A DNA stretch of 64,000 nucleotides from Stegostoma tigrinum (GCF_030684315.1 NC_081367.1:18148792-18212791); one strand, 5' to 3'; counted from the first letter of the stretch, positions 12,510 to 55,590 are shown. Program-made: numbers and translations. Notes: generated by a model from the letters alone, not told the origin.

Positions 12510-13915
12510 GATCACTGTACAGACCTTGTGGAGACAAAGCCTTGCCTTTACATTGAGTATACCATTTATCGTGTTGTGTGGCACTATCACTGTGCTAAAT
12601 GGGACAGACTTCAAACAGCTCTGGCAACTCAAGACGGGGCATCCATGAGGTGCAGTGAGCCATCAACAGCGGCAAAATTGTACTCCAGCACAATCTGCAA
12701 CCTCATTGCTCAGCATCTCCTTCACTCAACCATTACCATCAAGCCAAAGGATCAAACCTGGTTCGCCAGAGAGTGCAGGAGGGCATGTCAGGAGGAGCGC
12801 CAGGCATACTTAAAAAAACAAGGTGACTGTCTGGTGTAGCTACAAAACAGGTCTATTTGCATGTCAGTTAGTTAGAACAGCAAGCGATAGATAGAGTTAT
12901 GTGATCCCACAATCAATGGATCAGATGTAAACTCTGCAGTCTGCCACATCCAGTTGTGAATCGCGGTGAACAATTAAACAACTCACTGGAGGAGAAGGCT
13001 CCAGAAATATCCCCATCCTCAATGATGGAACAGCCCAATATATCAGTGCAAACAAAAAGGCTGAAGCATTCACAGTAATCTTCAGCCAGAATTGCTGAGT
13101 AGATGAACCACCTTGAACTCCTCCAATGGCCTCCAGCATTGCAGATACCAGTCTTCAGCCTATTTGATTCACTCCGCACAAAATCAAGAAACAGTTGGAG
13201 GCGCTGGATACAGCAAAGGCTATGGCCCTGACAAAATTGTGACAATAGTACTGCAGAGTTGTGCTCCAGAACTTGTCATTCCCCTAACCAAGTTCTTCCA
13301 GTACGGCTACAACACTGCCATCTACCCAAAAATGTGGAAATTTGTCTAGGTCTGTGCTGTACACAAAAAGCAGGACAAATCCAATCTGGCCAATTACTGC
13401 TCCATCACAGTCTACTCTCGATCATCAGTAAAGCGATGGAAGGTGTCATCAGCAGTGCTATCAAGCAGCAACTGCTCAGCAATAACCTGCTCAGTGATAA
13501 TGGGAACTGCAGATGCTGGAGAATCCAAGATAATAAAGTGTGAAGCTGGATGAACACAGCAGGCCAAGCAGCATCTCAGGAGCACAAAAGCTGACGTTTC
13601 GGGCCTAGACCCTTCATAAAGGGTCTAGGCCCGAAACGTCAGCCTTTGTGCTCCTGAGATGCTGCTTGGCCTGCTGTGTTCATCCAGCTTCACACTTTAT
13701 TAACCTGCTCAGTGATGCCCAGTTTGGGTGCTGCCAGGACCACTCCGCTCCTGACCTCATTACAGCCTTAGTTCAAACATGGACAAAAGAGCTGAATTCC
13801 AGATGTGAGGTGAGAGTGACAGCCCTTGACATCAAGGTCACATTTGACCAAGAGTGGTATCAAGGACCCCTACCAAAACTGGAATCAATGGGAATCAGAG
13901 GCAAACTCTCCATTG
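12510..13915 (+). mobile_element. Non-LTR retrotransposon ORF2 fragment (CR1/L2/Jockey supergroup), interrupted by a PLE mini-element
   Basis: SKGYGPDKI..VLQSCAPELVIPLTKFFQ and LLSDAQFG..QDHSAPDLITALVQTWTKEL...TALDIKVTFD are RT domain 1-3 motifs; ends in a 17-bp tandem duplication (13898-13937). Confidence 0.8.
13497..13700. mobile_element. Palindromic PLE mini-element (family A) with TSD
   Basis: ~120-nt minus arm plus ~80-nt plus arm; TAACCTGCTCAGTGAT duplicated at 13483-13498 and 13701-13716; the host LINE frame resumes after it. Confidence 0.9.
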
Positions 13916-13939
13916 AGGCAAACTCTCCATTGAGGCACA

Positions 13940-15640
13940 TTTCCAAAGTTGCAGGCTTGTATGACAGAAAAAAAAAATCTCCTCACCTTTGTCCTAAAAG
14001 AATGATTCCTAATCTTAAAACAGTACCTCTAGGTTTGGACTGTCCAATAAGGAAAAAAAAAATCATCCATTTTACATTCACTTTGGCAGGATCTTAACTT
14101 CTCCACTCCAGTGGAAATACATCCAGTCTGTTTAACCTTTCCTCTTTCCTCTTAAGACAATCCACTTTTTTTGGGTATCAATCTAGTGAACCTTCTCTGA
14201 ACTGTCTGCAATGTGTTTCAATCCTTCCTTCAGTCAGCAGAACAAAACCCCACACAACATTCAACATGTGGTCTTACCAATGGCCTGTGTAAATGAAGTG
14301 CAACCATTTTATTTTTATATTCAATATTTTATATTCCCTTTCTTTCAGAATAAGTGGTCACATATCCCATTAGCCTCCTTGTTGACATGCTGTACCTGCA
14401 TACTAATGTTATTTTTAATTACGCATTGAAACACCTGAATTCCTCTGCAGAGATATTAGGAACTGCAGATGCTGGAGAATTTGAGATAACAAGGTGTAAA
14501 GCTGAATGAAGACAGCAGGCCAAGCAGCATCAGAGGAGCAGGAAGGCTGATGTTTTGGGCCGAAACCCTTCTTCAGAAAAACGGTTTGAAGAAGGGTCTA
14601 GGCCCATAACATCAGCCTTCCTGCTCCTCTGATGCTGCTTGGCCTGCTGTGTTCATCCAGCTCTACACCTTGAATTCCTCTGCACCTCAATTGCTGCAGC
14701 TGTTCTTCATTTACATAATAATCTGTTTTTTTATTCTTCCTTCCAAAATAAATAACTTCACATTTTCCCATATTATACTCACTTCTTTTTACCCACTCCC
14801 TCAACCTATCTATATCCTTATGTAAATTCCTTTCGACTTCTTCAAAACATACTTTTCTACCTGTCCTCATGTCAGTTCCAAATTTAGATGCCATGTCAAA
14901 CTAAGTCATTGATGTAAATTGTAAAAAGATGAGTTGCTTTCTCAGACCCCACTCAATTAGACCAAGACCCATTTAGGCATTCTCTCTGTTTGCTGGCAGC
15001 TAGCCAATCTCCCATCCATGCAAAATCACAAAGAACTTAATTTTGGCACAGATTATCATTTCCAAAACCGCTCGAGCGTTCTAGTAAATTGTTTGTTTCC
15101 ACCACTTCTATGTTTACCATAACAAATATCTCTTCCATCTTTCTTTTCTTCCCTCTATTTCCTGAGCACCTTGTACTCTGCATTATTTGATATGCAGTCC
15201 TGCTGTTTTTAGATTCAGGTCTTTGTTGTTGCCTCAACATTATATTACACATATCTATTTCTGCTTGCAGCTGACCAGTTTTACTTGCAACACTTTGCAC
15301 ACTCACATACATGCATAGTGAACCCGAATTAGATTTTACTGTGCTTCCTTTCAGCCTCATTGACAAAATTTCTTCCTGTGATGCTATCTGTTTCTTTCAA
15401 TTCTTTATGCTCCTTATTTTTTCTTTCCAATGCCACGTTTTGGTATCTATCTTCTTGCCAGTTTTATCTAAACTCTCTCTTATAGCTTTAGCGAACTGCC
15501 CACAGGCAAGCAGGTGTCTGCCCTGTGTTTCATTCAACCCATCTAGTTTGTACAGATCCCAGTTCCTCAGAACCAATCTCAATGTTCCATGATTCAAAAA
15601 AATTTCACTTTATACCGTCTCTCCAGCTATATATTTACCT
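13940..15640 (-). mobile_element. Fragmented CR1 LINE (ORF1 esterase-like and ORF2 RT pieces)
   Basis: SKFGTD..RNLHKDIDRLREWVK..YNMGKCEVIYFGRKN (CR1 RT C-terminus) and WDLYKLDGLN (ORF1 LYxxDGLH-like motif). Confidence 0.7.
14450..14670. mobile_element. Palindromic PLE mini-element (family B) with TSD
   Basis: Inverted arms around 14580-14586; TGAATTCCTCTGCA at 14436-14449 and 14671-14684. Confidence 0.88.
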
Positions 15641-15744
15641 CCTGTTGTGTGTGAAATTGTCCCTCAAGATGAAGAAGACCTTTGCTCTTCACAAGAATCT
15701 ATGCATAGAATATCTTAACATGGACGTGTTGTCATGCTTTGGCT

Positions 15745-15945
15745 AGCACATTGTTCTGCCTGATGAGGAAACCCAACCACACTCACTGTTTGCCACAGAT
15801 GTATTGAAATGATTTACAAATTACTAACCAAGCTGTTTGGAAACATAACGACATCTGTGGTCATCAAGGCCTGGTGGTATGGCTTGAACCCAGAGCTTTC
15901 TGGCCCTGATATAGGGACATTACCAATGCTCCACAAGACCTCCTT
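15745..15945 (-). mobile_element. tRNA-derived SINE remnant
   Basis: Reverse strand shows GGGTTCAAGCC B-box and a tRNA-like head; related to 2765-2880. Confidence 0.45.
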
Positions 15946-16388
15946 CTCCTATTTATCTACTGAATGGGCCTGGGACTGATTTTTGTTTCCTTTCTAGCTT
16001 CTTAACAAGCTGCCTATAAAACTGCATCCCTCTTTCCACATCGATTGAAACTGATATGGACCATGACCTTTGGCTGTTCACTTACCTTCCTCAGAAGGTT
16101 TGGTAACCACTCAAGTATATCCTCAAATAATCTCCTTTCTGTTCCTCTAGAGATAGACTACCAACTATTAATGCTGACTTAACAAACCTCCTCCTCTCCC
16201 TCGATCCACCCACGTTATCATAACCTTGCCTGTGCCCGCTCTTATGAAATGAACCATAATTTTCAGCATACCAGTTCAGGAGTGAAACACATTCAATGGA
16301 CTCAAGATGTATTTGCTTGGTCTTTGTTGACTTTAAGGTAATTGTTCATCCCATGGCTGCCTCCACATCCTTCAGGTGAAGAGTGACC

Positions 16389-19036: not shown

Positions 19037-20619
19037 CCCTTAGCTGAAGAGAGCACATAGTTGAATCCAGGAAAAATGCTCAGAATTTAAACATTGATTA
19101 TATTCCCTTATACAAATACCTTTAGCATTATGAAACGTACCTGCGCACCCTAGATACAAAAGTTTCACGTGTAGTGGAATCATTCTGTGGTTTGATCTTG
19201 GTAACATTCAAATGCATGCAGCATTCAATCAGAAATAAACTAGAGCTAAGCAATACTGAATGTGACATCTTTACAGTCTGTTAAGTCCAATTGTAGAAAT
19301 GTGAATCAGTTCCATCCTCCCCATCTTTTTAACCCCATGCTTGGCCACAACAAAGATTTTTAATTTTTTTAAGTACTCAGCTGTCACACTTCAATTTAAA
19401 CTCGCATGATGTTTGAAATTCCAATTTTGTAATTCAAATCTAAAAATGCTGCTATTGAATTGAGACTAATGTATAAATAATGTTGACTAATGACTTCCAT
19501 TCTAAAAAGACATTGGATGGAATTTTATTCTTGTCCTGGAAGCAGACGAGGAGATGGGTGGTTGATTTAATTTGACAGGAAGGGCTGGGTGAGACCCACC
19601 ACCAGCCTGACTCACTACCATCAAGTCCGTGTTGGGAAGTTTCAAGGATTGCCTTCCTGTCTGAATGATGATTGAAATCTTTAATTGCTCAATTAATGTC
19701 CATTCAAGGGTGGGAAACTGGGGCCGTGACGTGTGTACTACCCTCCAGGCACATTTGACAGGCTGTGTTTGTCTTCCCTTCTGCCTGATGAGACTAAGAC
19801 CAGCAGACCCCTTGAACGATCCTGGGTAAAGACCTCCACCTGCCCTAAATGCGAAGCAAAGACTGCTTCCCAACCTCCTCCAGCACCCATTGGCTTGTGT
19901 ATGCCTTACTCTGATGAACTCACTCCAGTTGCCAAATGCCATGGGCATAAACATAAATCCTCTGCCTTGGACTTCTGAAGTATCAGCAGTAACCACCATT
20001 CCTGGTTGTGCTGTGGTGATGGAGAGCTGCAGGGCCATCGTACCTTCTGGAAAATTCATCTTTTCTGTGGACGCCGATTCCAAGCAGGAATGTGCCTGAG
20101 TGAGTTGGGTCAGTCACAGAATGGCTACAGTGGTATTTTCACTGGATCTCTAAACAATGAATGCACCCACTAACAAAGGCAATAAATTTCACTCCATGAG
20201 TTTACTGTTGGCCAACCAAGTAACTGCAATTTACTGTTTGTTCTACTGTAAACAGTATTTATTGAAACTCTGAGGTTAAAATTGATGATAAGGAGGAACA
20301 CTAAGGAAATTAATAGGCATCAGGTGCAAGTTGGTGGAGTTGTGATTTGAATTTGTGATACATATATAGCAGAGCATTTACTTTTTTAGTAAGATATTTG
20401 AAACATAAGAAGAATCAAACTTTCAGCATTTTGCTTTCCTCCCAATGTAACTGTTTAATCAAATTTTCTCCAAACTGATTAAAAGCATATAGAATAGATC
20501 CACTTCCTTTTACTCAGTATCTGCGTGAGAAAGTGCTTCTACATCAATACCCTGTTTCTCATTGCCACACAACTGGCATTTATACAACAAGTTTAATATT
20601 GCAAAACATCCTAAAGCAC

Positions 20620-20827
20620 ATCAATACAATGTGGAGCTGGAGGAATAGAGCATGTTAGACAGCAGCAGAGGAGCAGGCAAGTCAACATTTCAGGTTGGGA
20701 CTGAATAAGGTTCCCAACCTGAAATGTTGACTTTCCTGCTCCTCTGATGCTGCCTGACCTGTTGTGTTCCTCCAGTCCCACACTGTATTGACTCTGACTC
20801 CAGCATCTGTAGTTCTTGCTATCTCTG
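20620..20827. mobile_element. Older palindromic PLE mini-element, long arm on the right
   Basis: Inverted arms about 20700-20710; degenerate TSD CATCCTAAAGCAC / CATTCTGAAGCAC. Confidence 0.75.
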
Positions 20828-20829
20828 AT

Positions 20830-21240
20830 CATTCTGAAGCACTATATAGGAACATTGTCAAACCACTTCATTCCGAGTCTCAATGGGAGATGAGAACAAA
20901 TAATGATGTGTTGTCAGGGAGATAGGTTTTCAAGGAGCATTTTAAGGGAATAAACAGATAGAGAGAGAGGTGGAGAGATTTAGGGCAGATATTCCACAGC
21001 TCAGGGCCTCAGAAACTGCAAGCATGGCTGTGAATGGTAGAGCAATTTAAAGCGGAGATGTATTTGAAGCCAGAATAGAGTTTTAAGCAGTTTAATGACT
21101 GGAGGACATTGCAGAGTGGGAAGGCCAAGATCAAGTAATGATTTAAAAACAAGAATGACCATTTTAAAATTGAGGTGTTGTGGAAAGGGAGCCAATGCAG
21201 ATCAGTGAGCGGAGGTAATAGATGAATGTGAATTGGTATG
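20830..21240 (-). mobile_element. L2 LINE 3' fragment
   Basis: PQHLNFKMVILVFKSLLDLG resembles the L2 ORF2 C-terminal motif; related pieces at ~36230-36600(+) and ~37780-38090(-). Confidence 0.55.
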
Positions 21241-21560: not shown

Positions 21561-22471
21561 CTAAAATAGAGACAACAGTTCAGAGGTGAATGATAAGACT
21601 TTACTGTATTTCTTATTCTTGGTATTATATCTCATACTTATTCTTCCAATTTTGTTTTGCCATTTTACATTTAGTGGGAAATAATTGCTCAATTTTGATT
21701 ATTGTTGGAAAGAGAGACATATTGCCAAAAGTATTTCTCTCTTTAAGAATTCTTTCCTCATGGTAATGCCTCAGACAATCATAGTGAAATTGCCAACCAA
21801 TCAGCACCCTGTTCTCCTGCAGTAAAAATCATTGAGATTATTTGAAATTTGGTTTTTGTGAGTTTGTTCTGATGAGTGCAAAATCAAAAGCACCAGCAAC
21901 AAGTCTCTGTGTTCAGTAATTTTCAAATACTTAGTCACATTCCAACGGAGAACAGAAGTATATATTGCTGAATTGCCAGAAATGATTGTTTTATCACGCA
22001 CACAAATAAAAGCTTGGAAAAAAAGATACTGTCACTTAAATCTCTCTCCAGAAAAAAATCTCCAGTTAATTCTATAAAGCTCCTGCAGGCTGAAAAAAAA
22101 TCAATGTGAAAGATATAAACGCACAACCTCCAAAATAAGAACAGAAATTTCCGAGATAACAAGGTGTAGATCTGGATTAACACAGCAGGCCATGCAGCAT
22201 CAGAGAAGTAGGCCTAGAATTTCCTGTTTGCTGAAGCTGGTGAATGTTCTGTATGAATGAAGCTTCTGGAAGAATAAGAAGTGTGCCCTCAGGGTGAATA
22301 TATTATCATTCTCCTCCTCTATCGCATTTCTGACCTCAGTTACAGTCCTCATTAGGGGCTAAGAACTTTTTCACTGAGTGAGCATAGCAATACACTTTCT
22401 CATAATTGTTACACATTCACATTGAGTTTATATTAATGTTTATTTTAAAATTATATGATAAAGCAATGTAC

Positions 22472-23111: not shown

Positions 23112-23466
23112 TTTCACATTGAGGAGATAGAAGTTTTCTTTTGTACCTGTGCTGCATACTATTTTATTTTAGTTTCTTGTTTTCGAAAGCTGATTCCAAA
23201 AGAATTTTATCTGCAAAAGGACAAAATATATTTTTGAGTAATGGTATTGTCATTTTATAGACTCTAAATTTCATTTAATTGGAGTAGGGTTGAGGCATTT
23301 TGTAGTGTGTGCAGAAACATCAATGATGGACATGGGTCATTGTACTAGAGACCATCAAGACTAAGAGAATTGGAGTTCTGTCAATTGAAGGTGGAAAAGA
23401 TAATGTTTGCTGCCAGGCTTGCATTTAACACTGCAACAATCCAAGTAGAAACAAGCAACTGAAACA

Positions 23467-25341
23467 TTTTCTCCCCTTTGGTCCAGGAACTCGCTACCTA
23501 CGTCCGTGACACCACCCATGCCCTCCACCTCCTCCAGGAGTTCCAATTCCCTGGCCCCCAACACCTCATTTTCACCATGGACGTCCAGTCCCTATACACC
23601 TGTATTCCGCATGCAGATGGCCTCAAGGCCCTCCGCTACTTCCTGTCCCGCAGGCCCAACCAGTCCCCTCCACCGACACCCTCATCCGCCTAGCCGAACT
23701 CGTCCTGACCCTCAACAACTTCTCTTTCGATTCCTCCCACTTCCTACAGAGGAAGGGGGTGGCCATGGGCACCCGCATGGGCCCCAGCTATGCCTGCCTC
23801 TTTGTAGGTAACGTGGAACAGTCCCTTTTCTGCACCTACAAAGGCCCCAAACCCCACCTCCTCCTCCATTACATTGATGACTGTATCAGCGCCGCCTCTT
23901 GCTCCCCAGAGGAGCTCGAACAGTTCATCCACTTCACCAACACCTTCCACCCCAACCTTCAGTTCACCTGGGCCATCTCCAGCACATCCCTCACCATCCT
24001 GGAACTCTCAGTCTCCATCTCAGGCAACCAGCTTGTAACTGATGTCCATTTCAATCCCACTGACTCCCACAGCTACCTAGAATACACCTCCTCCCACCCA
24101 CCCTCCTGCAAAAATTCCATCCCCTATTCCCAATTCCTCCGCCTCTGCCGCATCTGCTCCCACGATGAGGCATTCCACTCCCGCACATCCCAGATGTCCA
24201 AGTTCTTCAAGGACCACAACTTTCCCCCCACAGTGGTCGAGAACGCCCTTGACCGCGTCTCCCGCATTGCCCGCAACACATCCCTCACACCCCGCCCCCG
24301 CCATAACTGCCCAAAGAGGATCCCCCTCGTTCTCACACACCACCCCACCAACCTCCGGAAACAACGCATCATCCTCCGACACTTGCGCCATCTACAATCC
24401 GACCCCACCACCCAAGATATTTTTCCATCCCCACCCTTGTCTGCTTTCCGGAGAGACCACTCTCTCCGTGACTCCCTTGTTTGATCCACACTGCCCTCCA
24501 ACCCCACCACACCCGGCACCTTCCCCTGCAACCGCAGGAAATGCTACGCTTGCCCCCACACCTCCTCCCTCACCCCTATCCCAGGCCACAAGATGACTTT
24601 CCATATTAAGCAGAGGTTCACCTGCACATCTGCCAATGTGGTATATTGCATCCATTGTACACGGTGTGTCTTCCTCTACATTGGGGAAACCAAGCGGAGG
24701 CTTGGGGACCGCTTTGCAGAACACCTCCGCTCGGTTCGCAATAAACAACTGCACCTCCCAGTCGCAAACCATTCCCACTCCCATTCTTTAGATGACATGT
24801 CCATCATGGGCCTCCTGCAGTGCCACAATGATGCCACCCGAAGGTTGCAGGAACAGCAACTCATATTCCGCTTGGGAACCCTGCAGCCCAATGGTATCAA
24901 TGTGGACTTCACCAGCTTCAAAATCTCTCCTTCCCCCACTGCATCCCAAAACCAGCCAAGCCTGTCTCCGCATCCCTAGCCTGTTCTTCCTCTCACCCAT
25001 CCCTTCCTCCCACCCCAAGCCGCACCTCCATTTCCTACCTACTAACCTCATCCTACCTCCTTGACCTGTCCGTCTTCCCTGGACTGACCTATCCCCTCCC
25101 CACCTCCCCACCTATACTCTCCTCTCCACCTATCTTCTTTTCTCTCCACCTTGGTTCCGCCTCCCCCTCTCTTCCTATTTATTCCAGAACCCTCACCCCA
25201 TCCCCCTATCTGATGAAGGGTCTAGGCCTGAAACGTCAGCGTTTGTGCTCCTGAGATGCTGCTTGGCCTGCTGTGTTCATCCAGCTTCACACTTTATTAT
25301 CTCGGATTCTCCAGCATCTGCAGTTCCCATTATCACTGTTA
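23467..25341 (+). mobile_element. 5'-truncated Penelope-like retroelement (Neptune-like), RT + GIY-YIG, defective
   Basis: FTMDVQSLYT, GVAMGTRMGPSYACLF, YIDD (RT); CNRRKCxxC linker; NVVYCIHCTRC..YIGETKRRLGDRFAEH (GIY-YIG); frameshifts and a stop; TSD CAACTGAAACA at 23456-23466 and 25342-25352. Confidence 0.93.
25210..25237 (+). ncRNA. Minimal type I hammerhead ribozyme motif in PLE pLTR
   Basis: CTGATGA-A-GGG-tctagg-CCT-GAAAC-GTC (G-U wobble in stem II). Confidence 0.65.
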
Positions 25342-25842
25342 CAACTGAAACAAACGTTTGAGACGTCCAGGTCAAGGGCCTGGAAAAGAATCAAGAAGAA
25401 GATGAGTTATTTTTTTTAGAAAAAAAACGAAATGTTTGGAACTGACAAAAAGGAGAAAAAAATCTTCAATGATGGGAAGAAAAGCTGTGACAGAAGAATT
25501 TGAGATAGAGAATCTGTCAGATGACCAGCTGTATCTTCAGTTTCGTTAGCAAGTCAGAGAATCTCCGCGCATGCAATAGTGTCCCAACCCTAAGCTGTTT
25601 GGGGTTTGGTTTGACTACCTATGTTTTAAATACATCATTACCATCTGGCAGAAAAATTCATCAGCTTTCAGGCATGGGAATCGGAATTTGCGGCAGGAAT
25701 ACAGCACACCAAGAAAGAGAATAAACTTACCTCGCTTGCTGCAGAAGACTGAGCCAGTTAAGAGATGTCACTGTTGAGGGAGAAGGGTATGAGTGAGGCT
25801 ACAGACAGCGTGTAAGAGAAGCTGCCTGGGTGAAGGTTAATA

Positions 25843-25955
25843 AAAACGAAGTTGCTGGAAAACCTCAGAAGGTCTGGCAGCATTTATGAAGGAAAAAGAG
25901 TTAACGTTTCGGGTCCGGAGGCCCTTCCTCAGAACTGTTCTGAAGAAGGGTCAAG
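25843..25955. mobile_element. Truncated family C hairpin PLE derivative
   Basis: GTTAACGTTTCGGGTCCGGAGGCCCTTCCTCAGAAC-TGTTCTGAAGAAGGGTC: inverted hammerhead-core halves. Confidence 0.6.
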
Positions 25956-27099
25956 TGGGATTTAAACCCTGGAGTCCCAGTTTATAGGTAGGGATACTAA
26001 CACTGTACCGCAAGAACCGTTTTGGGTGCCGGGTATCATGACTTATCAGTGTAGGCTTTATGGGAATAATCCAACACCCAGTCAATCAGTTCCCTAATAA
26101 AATCTTTAAAAATGCCCACTAATGTGTCAGTGTGTGTGTGACAGAGAAAGTGCGGTCAGGTTATCTATAGATTCACTTAATTTTTCTTTCCATTTCCGTT
26201 CAACTTTTAATGATTGACATTAATCGACAAACTGACAAATATTGGGCCAACAATCCCCGTTTCCTTTTACTTTAAACAAGTCGAAACATTTCTCGAAAGT
26301 TTAGAAATGTTTATGTATTTGCACGGATAATGGAAGAATCCTTAAATATTTCTATTAGAATATTATCAGGTGATTGTGTCTTTAACGAGGTGGAACAGAA
26401 TGGCGACGATGAGAATCGTTTTGCAGTGGGGCCAGTGCGCTAGGAAGCCTTCGTCCGTTGAAGCAAATTGTTCCACTAAAGGATATAGATTAGAAATGGA
26501 ACGAGATGCACTTGAAACAAGTGAATTGTGTGAAACAGATAGGCCGCGCTCTGATTCCTCAATGAATTTCTGCTACAATGGTCCTGAAAGGTCGGATGTT
26601 GCCCGTCGGTCTTTAGATTCTGTGATGTCGCCAAGGTAATGTACAAAACTGTATTTTCATTTTGGGTATTTACCCACGCGAGCAGGTTGCTTATTTATTA
26701 AAATGGCTATATTAGAAAGAATGTAACCAATTACCTCATAAATCTCCTTTCCAAAATGCACTATATTCAGTAAGAACACTGGAATTTCAGTTAAGGAGAG
26801 AAACAGGTTCACGACTAGACGGTTACTTTTATATTTTAATATTTCCATGCATTTTTTTAAATAGTGTGGTACCCCAAAACATTTCAACTTTCTTTTCCAA
26901 TCTAACTCGTATTTACATAGCTCCTTTATTGCAGGGAACGGTCCCCACACAGTTTGGCACGTCGCATAAATATAGAAATCCCATTCCCCTTTAGGCACAA
27001 TTCCCCTAATCCCCAATCTACAGTCGCAATAATGAGCACTGCTTCACCTTTTCAACACTGTAATGAGTGACCACTTACATCCAGATGGACTTTTTGACA

Positions 27100-27346
27100 G
27101 AGATCACAAAGTGTGGAGCTGGATGAACACGGCAGGCCAGGCAGCATCTTAGGAGCAGGAAAGCTGACGTTTCGGGCCTAGACCCTTCATCAGAAATGAA
27201 GGGTCTAAAAATAAATTTCTGATGAAGGGTCTAGGCCCGAAACGTCAGCTTTCCTGCTCCTAAGATGCTGCCTGGTCTGCCGTGTTCATCCAGTTCTGCA
27301 CCTTGTTATCTCGGATTCCCCAGCATCTGCAGTTCCTACTATCTCA
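27100..27346. mobile_element. Palindromic PLE mini-element (family B) with two intact hammerhead cores
   Basis: Minus-strand core 27166-27193, plus-strand core 27219-27246; extra partial ATGAAGGGTCTA in the loop; degenerate TSD GACTTTTTGACA / GACTTTATAACA. Confidence 0.88.
27219..27246 (+). ncRNA. Minimal type I hammerhead ribozyme motif
   Basis: CTGATGA-A-GGG-tctagg-CCC-GAAAC-GTC: conserved CUGAUGA and GAAA boxes, 3-bp stem II, palindromic ACGT stem III, GUC cleavage triplet. Confidence 0.72.
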
Positions 27347-27605
27347 GACTTTATAACATTCGCTTTTAAAATAGAAAGAAAAGCAGCATCTGAGAAAGAG
27401 CAGCTGGGATCACGGTGCAATTCCGGCCATTGTGCATCAACCCAAGAGACCCCACAACAAATCAATTCCTCAAACAGGACAGAAGCTCCTGGCAAGTGTC
27501 AGCGGTTCAGGCATCCTGTCTGGAGGGAGGGAGAGAGAGAGAGAGAAAGTAAATTTGTCAGATCACTGTTCGGTTTTTGCTTCTATTCAGTTCTTTTTCA
27601 TTTCA

Positions 27606-29021
27606 GAGATAATGGGAACTGCAGATGCTGGAGAATCCAAGATAATAAAGTGTGAAGCTGGATGAACACAGCAGGCCAAGCAGCATCTCAGGAGCACAAA
27701 AGCTGACGTTTCGGGCCTAGACCCTTCATCAGAGAGGGCGATGGGGTGAGGGTTCTGGAATAAATAGAGAGAGCGAGGGAGGCGGACCAAAGATGGAGAG
27801 AAGATAGGTGGAGAGGAGAGTATAGGTGGGGAGGTAGGGATGGGATAGGTCAGTCTAGGGAAGACAGACAGGTCAAGGAGGTGGGATGAGGTTAGTAGGT
27901 AGGAAATGGAGGTGCGGCTTGGGGTGGGAGGAAGGGATGGGTGAGAGGAAGAACAGGTTAGGGATGCGGAGACAGGCTGGGCTGGTTTTGGGATGCAGTG
28001 AGGAGAGGGGATGAACTGGGATGGTTTTGGGATGCAGTGGGGGAAGGGGAGATTTTGAAGCTGGTGAAGTCCACATTGATACCATTGGGCTGCAGGATTC
28101 CAAAGCGGAATATGAATTGCTGTTCCTGCAACCTTCGGCGGCATCATCGTGGCACTGCAGGAGGCCCATGATGGCACTTGCCCCCACACCTCCTCCCTCA
28201 CCCCTATCCCAGGCCCCAAGATTACTTTCCATATTAAGGAGAGGTTCACCTGCACATCTGCCAATGTGGTAGTGGTGCCAATGTGGTATACTGTATCCAT
28301 TGTACCCGGTGTGGCTTCCTCTACATTGGGGAAACCAAGCGGAGGCTTGGGGACGGCTTTGCAGAACACCTCCGCTCGGTACGCATCAAACAACTGCACC
28401 TCCTAGTCGCAAACCTTTTTAACTCCCCCTTCCCATTCTTTAGATGACATGTCCATCATGGGCCTCCTGCTGTGCCACAATGATGCCACCTGAAGGTTGC
28501 AGGAACAGCAACTCATATTCTGCTTGGGAACCCCGCAGCCCCATGGTATCAATGTGGACTTCACCAGCTTCAAAATCTCTCCTTCCCCCACTGCATCCCA
28601 AAACCAGCCCAGTTCTTGCCCTCCTCCCACTGCATCACTAAACCAGCCCAGCTCTTCTCCTCCCCCCACTGCATCCCAAAACCAGCCCAGCCTGTCTCTG
28701 TCTCCCTAACCTGTTCTTCCTCTCACCCATCCCTTCCTCCCAACTCAAGCCGCACCTCCATTTCTTACCTACTAACCTCATCCCACCTCCTTGTCCTGTC
28801 CGTCTTCCCTGGACTGACCTATCCCCTCCCCACCTATACTCTCCTCTCCACCTATCTTCTTTTCTCTCCATCTTCGGTCCGCCTCCCCCTCTCTCCCTAT
28901 TTATTCCAGAACTCTCACCCCATCCCCCTCTGTGATGAAGGGTCTAGGCCGGAAACGTCAGCTTTTGTGCTCCTGAGATGCTGCTTGGCCTGCTGTGTTC
29001 ATCCAGCCTCACACTTTATTA
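27606..29021. mobile_element. Head-to-head inverted Penelope-like element (minus arm 27606-28174, plus arm 28175-29021)
   Basis: Both arms end in the pLTR; GIY-YIG remnant in the plus arm; intact minus-strand hammerhead core 27705-27732; TSD TCTTTTTCATTTCA at 27592-27605 and 29022-29035. Confidence 0.92.
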
Positions 29022-29856
29022 TCTTTTTCATTTCATCTAGGTTTCAAAATAGTCCCAGTTCGCTTCACACACGCGTTGCTGGTTCAATAAACCCGACAAT
29101 AAATTCGACAGTGCGGTAGTAATATTAAAGATCAGCCTGTTATTCGCCTGTGAAATACACTGGAGAGCGAAAAATATCTCACAAAACATTAAAATGACAA
29201 ATCATATAGTGGGAAAATAAAACCTAGAGAACTGTGAATTCTGGAAATCTGAGACCAAAACAAAAATTGCTGGCGAAATTCAAGCGGGTCTGGTAGCGTC
29301 TGTAGAAGGAGAAAGACAGTTATTATTTCCGAGACCTTTCCTCGGGATTAGATAGATTGAAAAAGAGAAACCTGTGAAATATTGTTGCTCCAGGACAAGC
29401 AATCATTGTTGGCAAACTTTCTTACACCAAACAGTGAAAAGATTTTGTTTCTAATGACCGGGAAATCCGTGATTGCACTTCGCTCCAAACTGAATTAAAC
29501 ACGGTGTTTTAAAGTTCCAGCTCTTTACTGATTTGAGAATTCCTTTTCACTTTGTTGTAAACACTCGGTCAGATATTTTCAGTCTGAAATCAAAGAATGC
29601 AGCTTCTATTGAACGAGTTTACAGTCGGCCCACTCTGCTTTCTCTGTCACCTTTAATAATTTACCCAGTCGCCGAGTCTCTCTGAGACTCATTCACTTAC
29701 ACCCACTGCTCTCTGACTTGCTGCTCCTCCCATCAAGGGCCTCCGCTCCATCGGTTCACATTGCCCTGAACACGGGGCATAAACCAGAACCAGAGGTCGC
29801 AATGAACGGCCGGCTGATTGACGAGCGGTGGACTCTTGTCCGCTCACACACAAGTG

Positions 29857-30010
29857 AGAGATAGTGAGTACTGCCGATGCTGGAGTCTGAGATAACACAG
29901 TGTGGAGCTGGATGTACACAGCAGGCCAAGCAGCATCAGAGGAGCAGGAAAGCTGACGTTCCGGGTCTGGACCCTTATTTAGAAATGGGGGAAGGGAAAG
30001 AGGGCTCTCA
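29857..30010 (-). mobile_element. Single-arm family B PLE 3' fragment
   Basis: GAGATAGTGAGTACTGCCGATGCTGGAGTCTGAGATAACACAGTGTGGAGCTGG...GACCCTT. Confidence 0.75.
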
Positions 30011-30126
30011 AATAATTGTCCGAGTGATTCTGAGCTGTGGACAGGCGAAACATAGTGACGTTATAAATCCAACCTGCCTGGCGTGTAGATGAAGCTGTGT
30101 TTAAAGCTCCGCTTGCAAAGATACTT

Positions 30127-30306
30127 TTTTTGCAGAAACTCAGCAGGTCTGGCAGCATCAGAGGAAAGAAAAAAGGCTCTCTGGACTGAAACTTGAACTC
30201 TGTTTCTCTCTCCACAGATGCTGCCAGACCTGCTGAGTTTCTGCGTCAGTTTCTGCTTTTGTTCTTCTTTCAGATCCCCAGCAACCGCCGTTCTTTGTTT
30301 TATCTC
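30127..30306. mobile_element. Palindromic family C PLE derivative
   Basis: GCAGAAACTCAGCAGGTCTGGCAGCATC ... GATGCTGCCAGACCTGCTGAGTTTCTGC inverted pair with a longer right arm. Confidence 0.7.
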
Positions 30307-30491
30307 AGATATTTCTGACTTGGCGATGCTGAGACTTTTTTTTGTAGTTCGGTACATATTTATCTCTTGCGAAGAAGAGTTGATTTTCAGAGGGGATGTG
30401 GTTATCAGAGTGATTTCTTTCTGGGCAATATCTGAATCAGACAAAATGCGAATCGGCCCAGTGAGTTCAGAATAGGGCTGGGTTCTAACTT

Positions 30492-32281
30492 GTGATAAGG
30501 GGAACTGCAGATGCTGGAGAATCCAAGATACTAAAATGTGAGGCTGGATAAACACAGCAGGCCCAGCAGCATCTCAGGAGCACAAAAGCTGACATTTCGG
30601 GCCTAGACCCTTCATCAGAGTGGGGGATGGGGTGAGGGTTCTGGATAAATAGGGAGAGAGGGGGAGGCGGACCGAAGATGGAGAGAAAAGAAGATAGGTG
30701 GGGAGGAGAGGACAGGTGGGGAGGTAGGGAGGGGATAGGTCAGTTCAGGGAAGACGGACAGGTCAAGGAGGTGGGATGAGGTTAGTAGGTAGATGGGGGT
30801 GCGGCTTGGGGTGGGAGGAGGGGATGGGTGAGAGGAAGAACAGGTTAGGGAGGCAGAGACTGGTTGGACTGGTTTTGGGATGCAGTGGGTGGAGGGGAAG
30901 AGCTGGGCTGGTTGTGTGGTGCAGTGGGGGGAGGTGACGAACTGGGCTGGTTTTGGGATGCGGTGGGGGAAGGGGAGATTTTGAAGCTGGTGAAGTCCAC
31001 ATTGATACCATTGGGCTGCAGGGTTCCCAAGTTCTTCAAGGACCGCAACTTTCTCCCCACAGTGGTCAAGAACGCCCTTGACCGCGCCTCCCGCATTTCC
31101 CGCAACACATCCCTCACACCCCGCCCCCGCCACAACCGCCCAAAGAGGATCCCCCTCGTTCTCACACACCACCCCACCAACCTCCGGATACAACGCATCA
31201 TCCTCCGACACTTCCGCCATCTACAATCCGACGCCACCACCCAAGACATTTTCCCATCCCCACCCCTGTCTGCTTTCCGGAGAGACCACTCTCTCCGTGA
31301 CTCCCTTGTTCGCTCCACACTGCCCTCCAACCCCACCACACCCAGCACCTTCCCCTGCAACCGCAGGAAATGCTACACTTGCCCCCACACCTCCTCCCTC
31401 ACCCCTATCCCAGGCCCCATGATGACTTTCCACATTAAGCAGAGGTTCACCTGCACATCTGCCAATGTGGTATACTGCATCCACTGTACCCGGTGTGGCT
31501 TCCTCTACATTGGGGAAACCAAGCGGAGGCTTGGGGACCGCTTTGCAGAACACCTCCGCTCGGTTCGCAATAAACAACTGCACCTCCCAATCGCAAACCA
31601 TTTCCACTCCCCCTCCCATTCTTTAGATGACATGTCCATCATGGGGCTCCTGCAGTGCCACAATGATGCCACCCGAAGGTTGCAGGAACAGCAACTCATA
31701 TTCCGCTTGGGAACCCTGCAGTCCAATGGTATCAATGTGGACTTCACCAGCTTCAAAATCTCCCCTTCCCCCACCGCATCCCAAAACCAGCCCAGTTCAT
31801 CCCCTCCCCGCAATGCACCACACATACAGCCCAGCTCTTCCCCTCCACCCACTGCATCCCAAAACCAGTCCAACCAGTCTCTGCCTCCCTAACCTATTCT
31901 TCCTCTCACCCATCCCTTCCTTCCACCCCAAGCCGCACCTTCATCTCCTACCTACTAACCTCATCCCACCTCCTTGAACTGACCGTCTTCCCTGGACTGA
32001 CCTATCCCCTCCCTACCTCACCACCTATACTCGCCTCCCCACCTATCTTCTTTTCTCTCCATCTTCGGTCCGCCTCCCCCTCTCTCCCTATTTATCCCAG
32101 AACCCTCACCCCATCCCCCTCTCTGATGAAGGGTCTAGGCCCGGAACGTCAGCTTTTGTGCTCCTGAGATGCTGCTGGGCCTGCTGTGTTCATCCAGCCT
32201 CACATTTTATTATCTTGAGCTTTTGTGCTCCTGAGATGCTGCTGGGCCTGCTGTGTTCATCCAGCCTCACATTTTATTATC
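30492..32281. mobile_element. Head-to-head inverted Penelope-like element (minus arm 30492-31031, plus arm 31027-32217, terminal duplication 32218-32281)
   Basis: Open plus-arm frame covering RT C-terminal region, Cys linker and GIY-YIG (within ORF 30864-31892); CCAAG microhomology at the inversion junction; TSD CTGGGTTCTAACTT at 30478-30491 and 32282-32295. Confidence 0.93.
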
Positions 32282-32319
32282 CTGGGTTCTAACTTTACCA
32301 TTTTCCAGATGTGCAGTCC

Positions 32320-32424
32320 CTTCCAGACACGAAACGTCAGCTTTCCTCCTCCTCTGTGTGCTCATCTAGCTCTACACCTTGTTATCGCAGATTCTCCAGC
32401 ATCGGCAGTTCCCACTATCTCTGA
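32320..32424 (+). mobile_element. Family B PLE 3' fragment with internal deletion
   Basis: CGAAACGTCAGCTTTCCT...GCAGATTCTCCAGCATCGGCAGTTCCCACTATCTCTG. Confidence 0.7.
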
Positions 32425-33960: not shown

Positions 33961-34160
33961 TACAAAACGGCAATTGCTCGGAAAACTCAGCAGGTCTGGC
34001 AGCATCTGTGGAGAGAAAGTAGACTTAACTTTTATGGTTCAGTCACCCTTCTCAGTGCCCCTTCTTTAGAATGATTGAGTTCTGACCTGCTGAGTTTTCC
34101 TAGCAGTTTCATTTTTTTGTTTCTGAATTCCAGCATCCGTAGTTCTTCTGGTTTTTTTAG
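33961..34160. mobile_element. Palindromic family C PLE derivative (old)
   Basis: AAAACTCAGCAGGTC ... GACCTGCTGAGTTTT inverted pair plus a tail on the right arm. Confidence 0.65.
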
Positions 34161-35978: not shown

Positions 35979-35987
35979 AAGAACATG

Positions 35988-36047
35988 TTCCCTGATTGGG
36001 AAATGAACCCAGGCCGCGGTGGTGAGAGCACCAAATCCTAACCACTA
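35988..36047 (-). pseudogene. 5'-truncated tRNA-Glu(CTC) pseudogene
   Basis: TAGTGGTTAGGATTTGGTGCTCTCACCACCGCGGCCTGGGTTCATTTCCCAATCAGGGAA aligns with vertebrate tRNA-Glu(CTC) nt ~13-72, with mostly CpG-type changes. Confidence 0.8.
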
Positions 36048-36859: not shown

Positions 36860-37300
36860 CATACTGTGTTCAGTTCTGGTCCCCCTGTAATACAAAAAAT
36901 GTTGTGAAACTTGAAAGGAATTAGAAAGCATTTACAAGGATGTTGCTGGAGGGTTTGAGCTTTAGAGGGGCTGAATAGGCTGCCGCTATTCTCCCTGGAC
37001 TGAGGGGTGACATTATAGAAGTTACGAGGTACATGGATAGGGTGAAGAGCAAAGGGGCCTAAGGGGCAGGTGTTTCACACAGATGGTGGCGTGTGTACGG
37101 AATGAACTTCCAGAGGAAGTGGTGGAGGCTGGTACAGTTATAACATTTAAAGGCATCTGGATGGGCAAATGAATTGACAGTATTTAGAGGGATATGGGCC
37201 AAATACTGGCAAATGGGACTAGATTAATTTAGGATACCAGCTCGCCATGGACAAGTTGGACCGATGGTTTCCATGTCGTATATCTCTGTCTCTATGGTCT
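36860..37300 (+). mobile_element. CR1 (HER1-like) LINE 3' fragment
   Basis: ATACTGTGTTCAGTTCTGGTCCCC...TTTACAAGGATGTTGC...GGGATATGGGCCAAAT..GGCAAATGGGACTAGATT, a typical shark CR1 3' region. Confidence 0.75.
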
Positions 37301-38869: not shown

Positions 38870-39100
38870 GAGCAAAAATAGCTGGGCCAGCATTTATTGC
38901 TCATCCCTCATTACTCTTGAGAGGATGGCAGTGAACTGCCTTGTTGAACTACTGCAGTCCATTTAGTGCAGGTAAGCCTACAATGCTGCTAGGGAAACAA
39001 TTCCAAGAGTTTGACCCAGTGGCACTGAAGATATAACAGCATGTTTCCAAGTTTGCATGGTGTTGAGGCTTGGAGGGGAGCTTGAAGGTGATAGTGTTCT
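38870..39100 (-). mobile_element. Non-LTR retrotransposon 3' end
   Basis: Minus-strand PSKPQHHANLE..FSATGSNSWNCFP is an ORF2 C-terminal WN motif followed by a 3' UTR. Confidence 0.5.
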
Positions 39101-40077
39101 CAGACTCTTGCTGTGATTTGTGATCTGATTGATGCCATTTCACTCATCTGGATCAGAGCACTTGACCTCTTCCATCTGTCCACAAACATCCTTTTCATTG
39201 TCTGGGGTTTCTGGTAATTCATGACCTGATTGAAAATCACATTTAAGTGAGGATGTGGTTTTGGGTTGAACATATTAAGAGCCATCCAGGCATCCTTGTA
39301 AGGCATGCATGGTGACTGCTATGAATAGCACATTACAAGGTCAGCAAAAGGTATTCAGAAGTCTTTGACCTTGATCTGTGCACTCATGCTGTATCAGCCT
39401 GTACAGGACCCCAGAACTGTTCAAGCACCAGGGAATTGGGTTTGATCTTCTACCTTCCCCAAAACCATCACTGCTTTTGAAGACTCATACCAACTGTCTC
39501 CCACTGGTTGATATTAGGCCTGGCTAGGACTTCATGTGTCACGTGCAACAGAGTTCCCATTTGGTGTAACTCTAGCCGCTATGGTATAACTGAATCACAA
39601 AACTGTTTAGTTGATGGTCACTGTATGCTATGTGTAGTTGTCAGAACAGCAAACAGGAGGAAAGAGTGTCTTTGGTAGAAAGAGGCCTCTAGGGTAGAAG
39701 AATCAGACAGAAAAGGATTCCCACAACTAGATACAAATCATTAGATGCTGGAGCAGATGTAGGCCATTCATCACATCATGTCTGCTCTTCCAATCAATGA
39801 GATTATGGCTAATTGGATGACCTTCAACTTCACTTTCTGCTTTTTCCCTATAACTTTTGATTGGCATTATTCCCTGTAAATATAGTGTATTCCATGCTTA
39901 ACCTTGATTTTTCTTCATGTTTGTAATGACCGGTGATGCCAGTGGAATAAAGAATCCCTGCTTTATGATCTTCAGGCAGTTCACGTACTCAAAATTCATG
40001 TTTCAAGCAGTTGCTATGTGTATAAATTTGTACCCTGGAGAAAGGGCAATGTTCTGCAGAATGAGAGATGAGAGATC

Positions 40078-40289
40078 AGAGATAATGGGAACTGCAGATG
40101 CTGGAGAATCCGAGATAACAAAGTGTGGAGCTGAATGAACACAGCAGGCCAAGCAGCATCTCAGGATCACAAAAGCTGACATTTTGAGCCTAGGCCCTTC
40201 CTCAGGGTCTAGGCCCGAAAGATCAGCTTTTGTGCTCCTGAGATGCTGCTTGGCTTGCTGTGTTCATCCAGCTCCAAACTTTGTTATCT
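40078..40289. mobile_element. Palindromic PLE mini-element (family A) with TSD
   Basis: Arms meet at ~40200; ATGTTCTGCAGAATG (40049-40063) / ATGTTCTGGAGAATG (40290-40304); AGAGAT stutter between the left TSD and the element. Confidence 0.85.
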
Positions 40290-40494
40290 ATGTTCTGGAG
40301 AATGTCTGATTACTAAGACACTTTGAATGAAAGGAACAAAGGGAAGAGGTTTGAGGTTAGATTTCTATCTGGGATATGACTAGTTCAGTAATGATATCGA
40401 TTGGAATGAAAATGTACTGCATCATCTGTCCATTCTGTAAGATTACTAATGTTTGCCTGTAATTTGTGTGGTCTTTCTCAGTAGCAACACTGGA

Positions 40495-41005
40495 ACACAG
40501 GAGCACAGAACCTAGGAAAAGGAGTAGGCCATTTGACTCTATGAACCTGCTCCACCATTTAATAAGATCACGACAGATTGCCTTGTGGTCTTGACTCCAA
40601 CTTCCAGTCTGCCCCCCAAAACATTTTCCGTGCCTCAGAATTCAATCTAAATCAATTTGGAAAATTTAGCAACTCAAACTCCTCTGCTTCCTGGGGAAGA
40701 GTATTCCACAGACTAACTACCCTCCGAGAGAAAAAGAAAGCATCATCTCTGACCTTTAGTTTTTTTATACTGAGTTCACCAGATTCAGTCTCTCCCACAA
40801 GGGTTCAAACCTCCTGGTCCATCCTAATAAGTCACCTCAGGATCTTTTACATTTCAATAAAATCCGTTCCCTATCCTTCAAATTCCAATGGATTTAGGCC
40901 TAATCTGATGTGAACCCTCTTTATCACATAAGTCCTTCATACCCATGAAATGAGTTAAGTGAGCCTTCTCTAAACAGCATCCAACCAAGCCAAATCCTTT
41001 TCAAA
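40495..41005 (-). mobile_element. CR1 LINE 3' fragment
   Basis: AGGAGTAGGCCATTTG..CCTGCTCCACCATTTAATAAGATCA..GGGGAAGAGTATTCCACAGAC is the reverse of a CR1 3' end. Confidence 0.65.
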
Positions 41006-41666
41006 CAATGCCATGAATGTGTAGTTAAATATTGTATATTTTATAAAGAAGGTTAATTTGACGTTATATAATAGACTCAACACATAAAAATGGCTGCCAG
41101 AAGTTATATGCCTGATTCTTGTTCATTTATCGCAACCAGCCAAAAAGCAGGCAGACTGGCTTGATATCTCAACAGTAGCCACAAAGAGATCCATCTGAAA
41201 CTCAATTACACCGTTTTTAAGATGTCAAAATCCAAAACTTCTGAGCCAAGCAAGGTACTGGACAGAACAGGGAATTCAGCATAACTGACACTGCTATGTG
41301 GGACCACAATTTGTTAGCACTTAAGCAGCCATCTTAGGTGTGAAGTTCATCAAAGGTGAAACACCATTTTATAATTAGAACTTCCCTGAAGATCACTGGT
41401 AGGCAACATCAAAGGAGAAGAGAATTCTCAACTAAAAAGAAAGGGCTGAAAAAGCACAGATAATCTGCAAATATGCTAACCACAGAATTAGTGAGAAACC
41501 AGAAACTTTCTCTCTCTCTTTTAAAGCCTATACGTCTGGGAAAATATCAGCTATTCAAATACAGAAACAAAAGCAGTTACTGGCTTCAAGGATTAATCTC
41601 TTCATTTCAGCAAGAACAAACTCAAACAACAAGCCTGAACAACACATGACAGAAAATTATTTATTC

Positions 41667-41906
41667 AGAGATAGTAGGAACTGCCGATGCCGAAGAATCT
41701 GAGATAACAAGGTGTAGAGCTGGATGAACACAGCAGGCCAAGCAGCATCAGAGGAGCTGGAAAGCTGATGTTTCGGATCTGGACCCTTCTTCAGAAATTC
41801 TTAATTTTGATTTCTGAAGAAGGGCCCAGACCAGAAACGTCAGCCTTCCTGCTCCCCTGATGCTGCTTGGCCTGCTGTGTTCATCCAGCTCTACACCTTG
41901 TTATCA
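41667..41906. mobile_element. Palindromic PLE mini-element (family B)
   Basis: Inverted arms around an AT loop at 41798-41810; CTGAAGA-type hammerhead cores; degenerate TSD ACAGAAAATTATT / ACGGAAATTTATT. Confidence 0.85.
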
Positions 41907-42419
41907 CGGAAATTTATTGGACCTTTTACCTTGTAAGTTTTCCTTTGTCTTATCCGAATTTGTTTAAATCAGTCTCTGTAATTTTTATTTACTAAATATT
42001 TTTCTTTGTTTTTAAGGAGTCTTCAGCAATAACTTGTAATGAAGCAACATTTAACCTGTTTAAACAAACTGCTTGTCTACTTTAGCTTAAATCTCACAAA
42101 GTAAAAAAGGGGGATAAATTAGTTTTACTAAATCACAGTACATTGGCCAAACAGTGGATATGTCTGACAACTGGAACTTCATGTACGAGAGGGGATGGCA
42201 AGCCGAAGCCAAAATTCAAACAAAAGTTAAGATTTACTCCACTGCGAAGCAAGCTGAATTTGATTTGCAATTAACATGGAAGTGGAAGTAAAGTATCAGA
42301 ATCAACCTGTTTAAAAGCCAAACTAGATTTACAATGATGAGATCTTGTTTTGTATACGTATTAATAATAGTGAGATGGTGACTTTTGATGATCAAGACCT
42401 TACCAATCATAACAACACA

Positions 42420-53599: not shown

Positions 53600-55590
<1,991 letters not shown>

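Follow-up and report, generated by a model that had tools for sequence, protein, structure and literature searches.

Palindromic terminal stubs of a hammerhead-bearing Penelope-like element in a 64-kb window of the Stegostoma tigrinum genome

The source element and its six mini palindromes

The window analysed here is a 64-kb stretch of one strand of the Stegostoma tigrinum genome (GCF_030684315.1, NC_081367.1:18148792-18212791; 41.6% GC). It contains copies of a Penelope-like element (PLE) of several lengths, among them six short palindromes ("minis") in which two terminal segments of the element stand head to head at a hammerhead ribozyme motif. Among the insertions of this Neptune-type PLE, which form a graded series in size, the minis are the smallest. 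The feature is real and has a layout that is already known, and it belongs, as a case from a shark, to the ordinary spectrum of PLE insertions and not to the retrozymes.

The longest PLE copy (23456..25352, plus strand) is 5'-truncated, lies in a single orientation between exact 11-bp target site duplications (TSDs) and ends at the tail end of the element. It comprises a reverse transcriptase (RT) remnant (23510-24481), a CX4CxxC linker with a GIY-YIG region (24485-24976), a pyrimidine-rich untranslated region (UTR), the hammerhead core with its C3 at 25210, a predicted cleavage site at 25237/25238, the no-tail end at ~25301-25303 and the tail end at 25338. Positions are hereafter counted from C3 of the core (+1 = 25210 in this copy). 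On this scale the predicted cut falls between +28 and +29, the short 3' end (no tail) at +92 to +94, and the tail runs to +129. The Pfam matches of this copy were below the cut-offs (RVT_1, E=0.0039; GIY-YIG, E=0.0004-0.0014). A tblastn comparison with homologues showed that an 803-aa protein with RT and endonuclease (EN) matches it over 420 residues (53%, E=4e-146), and the top named match of the RT remnant came from Chiloscyllium punctatum (66% identity). The EN-containing (EN+) PLEs are defined by a CCHH motif whose two cysteines stand between GIY and YIG (PMC8557442); it is present in 24485-24976 as VVYCIHCTRC..YIGE with two later histidines. The CX2-5CxxC linker between RT and EN, common to Neptune and Nematis and absent in Penelope/Poseidon (PMC8557442), was found as CNRRKCYAC at the start of the same region, and the homologues carry the same motif. 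Judged from these domains, the source is an EN+ PLE with RT followed by a C-terminal GIY-YIG. Its linker and CCHH GIY-YIG would fit Neptune/Nematis, the Neptune-type label being given by motif rather than by RT phylogeny; the 120 homologues listed for the RT included no named clade references. No paper was found under the repeat-database label Penelope1_Vert. EN+ PLEs also form partial tandems in which a pseudo-long terminal repeat (pLTR) lies upstream of a full open reading frame; the 64-kb window holds no full-length copy, and the sequencing contigs described below showed short tandem joints only.

A strict scan for minimal hammerheads gave eight matches in the window versus a mean of 0.07 (maximum 1) over 30 shuffles. 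The motif reads as the standard minimal type I hammerhead of PLEs, with the core CUGANGA / GAAA / NUH, stem II and a palindromic 15.2-16.2. Rfam reported no hammerhead family; its 16 matches were all below the gathering scores and were mostly generic hairpins, some of them microRNA (miRNA)-like. The earlier note on this DNA had proposed a PLE origin, a minimal type I hammerhead and a Neptune-like RT/GIY-YIG source, all of which are supported by the domains, the homologues and the hammerhead scan.

All six compact inverted repeats named in that note (near 13497, 14450, 20620, 27100, 40078 and 41667) were confirmed, with total lengths of 207-247 nt and arms of 80-101 nt that are 86-97% complementary. 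Both arms of every mini are the PLE terminal segment with the 3' ends outward, and the inner ends fall within -5 to +11, counted from C3; the arms do meet at or beside the core, as had been claimed. The two copies are indeed inverted, but they are unequal, as a tail of ~36 nt is present on exactly one arm of each mini. The six fall into at least three sequence subfamilies (A, B and C) and are not the single family that had been assumed.

Mini 1 (subfamily A, 13483..13716) is flanked by an exact 16-bp TSD (13483-13498 / 13701-13716). Its left arm (13492-13617, minus strand, with tail) starts at +4 and is separated by one extra base from the right arm (13619-13702, plus strand, no tail), which starts at +7; there is no intact core, and the host sequence is a candidate remnant of an older long interspersed element (LINE) RT. 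Mini 2 (subfamily B, 14436..14684; exact 14-bp TSD, 14436-14449 / 14671-14684) consists of a left arm at 14448-14579 (minus strand, with tail, starting at -3), a 7-nt linker and a right arm at 14587-14672 (plus strand, no tail, starting at ~+2), the GAAA box being decayed in each arm. Mini 3 (older subfamily C, 20607..20842) has a decayed 13-bp TSD (20607-20619 / 20830-20842), a left arm without tail at 20620-20701 (minus strand, starting at ~+11) and a right arm with tail at 20701-20827 (plus strand, starting at +1). In mini 4 (subfamily B variant, 27088..27358; decayed 12-bp TSD, 27088-27099 / 27347-27358) the left arm (27100-27198, minus strand, no tail) starts at -5 and the right arm (27215-27347, plus strand, with tail) at -4, and the linker between them (27199-27214) contains a 9-nt restart of the sense strand. 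In this mini alone the core is intact on the two strands (C3 at 27193, minus, and at 27219, plus). Mini 5 (subfamily A, 40049..40304) has a 15-bp TSD with one mismatch (40049-40063 / 40290-40304) and 13 extra bases repeating the tail end; its left arm (40077-40205, minus strand, with tail, starting at +1) overlaps by 2 nt with the right arm (40204-40290, plus strand, no tail, starting at +8). Mini 6 (subfamily B, 41649..41918; decayed 13-bp TSD, 41649-41661 / 41906-41918) has arms at 41666-41798 (minus strand, with tail) and 41810-41907 (plus strand, no tail), both starting at -4 on either side of an 11-nt linker.

The earlier note had given each insertion its own TSD of 12-16 bp. This holds for 13497 (16 bp), 14450 (14 bp) and 40078 (15 bp, 1 mismatch), for which p<=0.001 versus 2000 random flank pairs. 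The decayed TSDs of 20620, 27100 and 41667 (13, 12 and 13 bp, two mismatches each) were no better than chance in a free search (p=0.16-0.43) and became significant only when the match had to abut the element ends (p=0.005, 0.018 and 0.002, respectively). The last seven bases of the mini 1 TSD (13492-13498) are also the terminal seven bases of its tail, and overlaps of 2-3 nt were seen at several other ends; such overlaps would be expected if microhomology helps priming.

Two longer inverted insertions have the same layout. The first (27592..29035) has an exact 14-bp TSD, a left arm at 27604-28174 (minus strand, with tail) and a right arm at 28177-29024 (plus strand, no tail) that includes the GIY-YIG region. 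The second (30478..32295), also with an exact 14-bp TSD, has a left arm at 30492-31031 (minus strand, with tail) and a right arm at 31027-32217 (plus strand), followed by a terminal direct unit (32218..32282, plus strand) that starts exactly at +29 and stops at the no-tail end. The one-tail anatomy (~36 nt) together with a TSD was found in 8 of 8 inverted insertions (six minis and two long copies), and the left arm of the 13497 mini matched an arm of a long copy (at 27609) with 100% identity across 118 nt.

Copies in a single orientation include a long 5'-truncated copy (56040..57078, plus strand) with a no-tail end, an intact core at 56987 and a TSD that was not significant. A solo 56-nt arm (42528..42605, minus strand) starts at ~+37 and has a no-tail end and an exact 11-bp TSD, whereas the TSD of a solo arm with tail (58801..58920, plus strand), which starts at +10 inside stem II, was not significant. 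The solo arms of subfamily B are one with tail and an internal deletion (32322..32424, plus strand, starting at ~+12), one with tail, ~26 nt of its own upstream UTR and a decayed core (29857..30015, minus strand) and a short one starting at ~+39 (22150..22212, minus strand); a subfamily A arm with tail (1..122, plus strand) is interrupted by the window start. Each end type was thus found singly with an exact 11-bp TSD, namely the tail end in 23456-25352 and the no-tail end in 42528-42605. Open reading frame (ORF)-bearing copies, scored by tblastn with the window-edge copy counted as short, made up 4 of 9 copies in family A and 0 of 15 in families B, C and D (Fisher P=0.012). The earlier list of insertions, sound for the six minis, had left out the long inverted copies and several short arms that stand alone, as well as another, older family that shares the layout.

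In 4 of 4 translated copies of subfamilies A and B, a hydrophobic frame of 27 codons begins with an ATG at +49 and runs through the tail (25258-25338 and the equivalent arms). The A. vaga pLTR holds an ORF start, which the +49 frame would match; tblastn with the 120 homologues gave no significant match to the frame (best E=0.34), and an ORF start is not claimed. Just past the PLE stop codon lies a 30-45-nt unit in 1-3 copies that differ by insertion (27990-28050, 28610-28690, 30880-30980 and 31760-31890), the extra units being present in both arms of one long inverted copy.

Junctions, copy number and the pile-up of 5' ends

The earlier note had left two readings of the minis: a self-propagating, retrozyme-like hairpin or a by-product of two-ended target priming. 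A self-copying hairpin family resembling short interspersed elements (SINEs) or miniature inverted-repeat transposable elements (MITEs) would be expected to share its internal junction. The six apices (left, right) are (+4,+7), (-3,+2), (+11,+1), (-5,-4), (+1,+8) and (-4,-4), so that 6 of 6 differ, and the linkers, which range from a 2-nt overlap to 16 nt, are all different as well. In the six window copies all junctions are therefore unique, which places them on the by-product side. It should be noted that unique junctions refute the copying of whole hairpins and not a SINE-like re-mobilisation of single arms.

Contigs of public sequencing runs were aligned to two PLE terminal regions of the window, 24781-25380 and 27190-27354. 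Runs X1 and X4 come from one sample and runs X12 and X5 from other organisms. At the apex of the 27100 mini the summed X4 depth was 12-19 over 27190-27201 and 96 over 27202-27207, versus 1-10 million in the arm. Single listed contigs in the arm have depths of 5-8, and the summed depth is not a copy number, the gap being about five orders of magnitude. The apex tested is near single-copy.

The state of the ribozymes points the same way. Only 3 of the 12 mini arms passed the hammerhead scan (both arms of 27100 and the left arm of 41667). The 13497 copy, the youngest-looking mini, lacks CUGA in either arm because both arms were cut short inside the core; it never had one. The claim that intact copies present a ribozyme motif on each strand is true for one of the six (27100). 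The minis are predicted to fold into hairpins of -123 to -196 kcal/mol, in which the core of the two minis that retain the core boxes has P(unpaired)=0.001 and would cost 24-29 kcal/mol to free. By geometry, transcripts that read through from either flank would have the antisense arm produced before the sense arm. The hairpin is thus predicted to bury the ribozyme and, as a hairpin, the product would be a dead end.

A hairpin copied whole as a self-propagating, self-cleaving, retrozyme-like unit is extremely improbable. Its uniform size (207-247 nt), its TSDs and the one copy with cores on both strands would suit such a unit, as might three multi-contig joints between opposite strands, detailed below. 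Against this stand the unique junctions, the near single-copy apex, the few two-strand hammerheads and the core buried in the fold; moreover, the arms follow the subfamily that bears the ORF, most of the ribozymes are truncated or broken, and retrozymes are described as direct tandem units (bioRxiv 10.64898/2026.07.22.740005), which the minis are not. The self-copying hairpin is not supported; the by-product reading is. A non-LTR (long terminal repeat) retrozyme was rejected, as the units are inverted and occur in single pairs, with only one of six having two intact cores, on opposite strands. MITEs have symmetric terminal inverted repeats and a short TSD of fixed length; the minis were rejected as MITEs because their ends differ by the 36-nt tail, their TSDs measure 11-16 bp and their arms match a retroelement end.

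The two 3' ends of the arms head the lists of loose contig ends. On the 27190-27354 reference, X4 had at least 412 contigs ending at +94 and at least 1087 at +127, and X12 had 139 and 318; on the 24781-25380 reference, X4 had at least 627, 1208 and 1482 contigs at +92 to +94 and at least 783 at +129. The no-tail and tail ends lead in X4 as well as in X12 and X5.

The 5' ends of the arms cluster at the ribozyme core. For families A-C, with the window-edge copy and family D left out, 14 of 24 arm 5' ends fall within -5..+12; grouped into events, 8 of 16 do so, for which three exponential nulls gave binomial P values from 5e-7 to 3e-4. Among the best six rows per run, 5' loose ends of contigs lie at -4, -3 and -1 in X4 (at least 693, 1035 and 423) and at -4 and -3 in X12 (271 and 357). 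Of the joints listed with inserted letters, 10 of 12 land at -4 to -1, and -1 is involved in 5 of the 15 joints listed on the 24781-25380 reference. The largest class of loose ends continues upstream into long, AT-rich, unalike sequence (agreement 0.34).

The second, older family of PLE ends (7524-7700, 11051-11180, 25850-25953, 29228-29345, 30130-30290, 33965-34160, 57155-57290 and 60315-60380) is ~70% alike and has a hammerhead variant of its own (scan match at 25932, minus strand). Its copies also stop at the core and have the same one-sided tail; several form inverted pairs with a tail on one arm, the second arm often being shortened.

Ribozyme cleavage was rejected as the cause of the main pile-up, as all 12 mini arms run 18-34 nt past the cut site: a stop ~30 nt upstream of the cut is not caused by cleavage. 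A structural stall fits poorly because at the stop the RT is already past the ribozyme, and a splice acceptor at -4 was rejected, as no AG is present there. The pile-up just ahead of the motif likely marks an RNA 5' end, the simplest cause being the template's 5' end. PLE transcripts start in the upstream pLTR (PMC6765202; PMC2377424); such a start, together with RT entry ~130 nt downstream, would account for such short cDNAs.

The extra direct unit 32218-32282 starts at the first base past the predicted ribozyme cut (+29). In X4, a joint from 25338 to 25238 (the tail end to +29; depth 93) is one of six listed rows leaving the tail end, the kind of joint not being stated. This +29 junction is possibly a trace of cleavage and is taken as a lead only, as one exact match among 24 ends would arise by chance in an estimated ~10% of cases. 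For self-cleavage as a dimer, a trait of minimal type I hammerheads, it gives a hint only. On the 27190-27354 reference, contig joints from +30..+39 to -4..-1 occur in both organisms; judged by the inserted letters, these may be short direct hammerhead duplications (period ~40 nt), to which an internal repeat of the first letters of the core near +42 could contribute. We found no paper describing a 5'-end pile-up at the hammerhead, a junction exactly at the predicted cleavage site or palindromic PLE stubs in a shark; few subscription papers and neither Repbase nor Dfam were covered.

Formation of the palindromic stubs

The minis are probably head-to-head insertions of the last ~130 nt of the PLE, each made afresh by two-ended priming, with the cDNAs running off at the RNA 5' end and then being joined. 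The by-product of two-ended target priming considered in the earlier note fits the data. The target would be cut in a staggered manner, as read from the TSDs of 11-16 bp, with the GIY-YIG domain as the putative cutter. The start of one cDNA would be the tail end (+129), whereas the second would begin ~36 nt inside it (+92 to +94), both ends being taken as RT start sites by inference from an anole PLE in vitro. Both cDNAs would often stop at about -7 to -3, presumably the 5' end of a pLTR-initiated transcript, the first ~130 nt of which would carry the RT entry sites. If a downstream repeat copy served as the template, the arms would extend into the UTR and the ORF and yield the long inverted copies. 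Finally, the cDNA 3' ends would be joined by a putative repair route with a few bases lost, an overlap of 1-3 nt or short templated inserts.

Several points weigh against two-ended priming with run-off at the RNA 5' end. One of the six apices was checked for copy number, and the junction table covers the window. X1 and X4 are perhaps from the same source as the window; 288 and 10 further joints lie beyond those listed, and the counts are lower bounds for X1 and X4. No symmetric fold-back joint was among the contig joints listed, so that the hairpin counts are those of the window. An opposite-strand joint 25209-25258 is present in at least five contigs (depth 197-294), and further opposite-strand joints were found at 25209-25260 (3-6 contigs) and 25302-25338 (10-17 contigs); these three multi-contig joints may be recurring junction forms. 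The -5..+12 band was picked post hoc and the arm ends were assigned by hand, and some of the loose ends at -4 and -1 only mark the points where subfamily UTRs diverge from the reference. In D. virilis, the Penelope start site precedes the ribozyme by ~120 nt, and an intron lies between the two (PMC2377424, PMC4209133); an RNA start at -4 is without direct precedent. Junctions like that of 40078 (2-nt overlap, 5-nt loop) fit the fold-back of one cDNA equally well. As to the opposite-strand joints that connect the no-tail end to the tail end (10 and 17 contigs), these would be 3'-to-3' neighbours or insertions of the element into its own end.

The fold-back just mentioned would have one cDNA prime itself near the ribozyme on a few complementary bases and copy itself, after which the endonuclease would trim the second arm at the no-tail site. 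The 40078 and 20620 minis, with overlaps of 1-2 nt and loops of element sequence, and the 9-nt restart after a 3-nt overlap in 27100 could be read in this way; the two arms are usually of the same subfamily, self-priming has been given for palindromes at inverted junctions (PMC3846280), and the tail has been ascribed to endonuclease resolution (PMC8557442). Nevertheless, 42528-42605 is a solitary arm with the no-tail end and a perfect TSD, so that this end can form without a partner arm, both strands are extended in vitro (PMC11167929), and the arms of the 27100 and 27604 copies differ at positions that separate subfamilies, a weak hint of two templates. Over 70 columns, the partner arm was the best or tied match for 9 of 12 mini arms (the exceptions being the left arm of 13497 and the arms of 40078), a result that does not separate the models. 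On balance, we regard fold-back as unlikely.

The difference in ORF-bearing copies between family A and families B, C and D (P=0.012) bears on another explanation, in which the single arm (-4 to +129) is a SINE-like unit with an outward internal promoter, which the PLE enzyme would re-insert singly, in tandem or as an inverted pair with a new junction each time. The head-to-tail units seen in the contigs, with the tail end joined to -1/+1, and the internal promoter of the D. virilis Penelope pLTR (PMC2377424) agree with it. However, the older families may have lost their long copies or have them beyond the 64 kb, and minis of family A share 97-100% identity with copies that bear the ORF. For the anole enzyme, the RNA must extend to +172 of the ORF, past the main start at 111-118 (PMC11167929); if the shark enzyme likewise requires sequence past the tail, the stubs lack it. 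Such a unit is quite unlikely.

We consider it very unlikely that the minis are full insertions (inverted pLTR, direct pLTR, ORF, pLTR) collapsed by recombination between the direct pLTRs, in the manner of a solo LTR. That arrangement with a TSD is a typical PLE layout (PMC3846280), and neither the TSD nor the apex nor the one-tail rule would be lost in a collapse. The homology available is only ~95-130 bp, though, no such precursor is present in the window, where both long inverted copies are without an inner direct pLTR, and the start of the pLTR at the core would be left unexplained.

Two-ended priming on a short run-off template may be extended further. The ~130-nt unit (-4 to the tail) could be a self-contained cassette with an internal promoter, the hammerhead and the RT entry sites, resembling retroviral strong-stop DNA; outward arms would be re-mobilised as the ORF-less SINE-like families B-D, with a new palindrome each time, and the +29 junctions would record cleaved RNA as the germ-line template. 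We hold this extension to be unlikely; if it were true, one could read in the shark genome, on a large natural scale, where the PLE RNA starts and is cleaved and where its two priming sites lie.

The finding does not stand as a new ribozyme element that copies itself. The way in which tandem and inverted PLE insertions are made is described as still undefined (PMC8557442), and the stubs, which are abundant and hold both outer and both inner ends within 250 bp, could serve to test two-ended priming and to map the likely RNA start. They could also show whether the ribozyme ever cuts its template in vivo. For annotation, it should be kept in mind that they resemble MITEs or miRNA hairpins, yet are retroelement stubs. 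Elsewhere in the window, 48414-48819 is a 400-bp AT-rich imperfect palindrome (69%) that is unlike the PLE end and is possibly an old MITE, and 53640-55690 is a ~2-kb C-rich low-complexity repeat that gives rise to long proline/glycine pseudo-ORFs.

Comparison with known systems

Metazoan PLE hammerheads have been described as having CUGANGA, one unpaired base, G10.1-C11.1, GAAA, a palindromic 15.2-16.2 and no loop 3 (PMC4209133), and the window core has these same features. The results and discussion of that survey do not discuss sharks. Dual motifs on opposite strands lie 100-700 bp apart in Schistosoma, and many single motifs come from truncated PLEs (PMC4209133), whereas here the two motifs lie 0-30 nt apart and helix I has 2 bp only.

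Non-LTR retrozymes are likewise non-coding, derived from PLE pLTRs and equipped with a type I hammerhead, and one from a chondrichthyan has been reported (bioRxiv 10.64898/2026.07.22.740005). The minis share these properties but differ in arrangement: in a retrozyme every unit has its ribozyme and the units are repeated directly in tandem, whereas the minis are single inverted pairs whose ribozymes are mostly broken. Abundant linear and circular RNA forms are a further mark of retrozymes.

The enzyme of the anole Poseidon PAc cuts and extends both strands, two adjacent internal start sites define the tail, and ribozyme cleavage is not required (PMC11167929). As in the window, its hammerhead lies just upstream of the start sites and the template RNA is uncleaved (12 of 12 mini arms pass the cut site). 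It belongs to another clade, Poseidon being without the CX2-5CxxC linker seen in the window PLE, and inverted products and a 5'-end pile-up are not among the results described in the part of that report available to us (PMC11167929).

PLEs typically show an inverted copy that is 5'-truncated, one end carrying a tail of 30-40 bp (PMC8557442, PMC3846280, PMC8969392), and all eight inverted insertions of the window have this form with a TSD. Like the complex insertions of canonical EN+ PLEs, they stand head to head with the 3' ends outward and a TSD around the whole unit, they come from a source with RT and, at the C terminus, GIY-YIG, and their tail is on one arm (~36 nt here versus 31 bp in Pen2a_Av; PMC3846280). 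They differ in that the described cases frame an ORF-bearing copy, whereas the window mostly has two terminal units alone, the inner ends of which cluster within ~17 nt at the ribozyme core.

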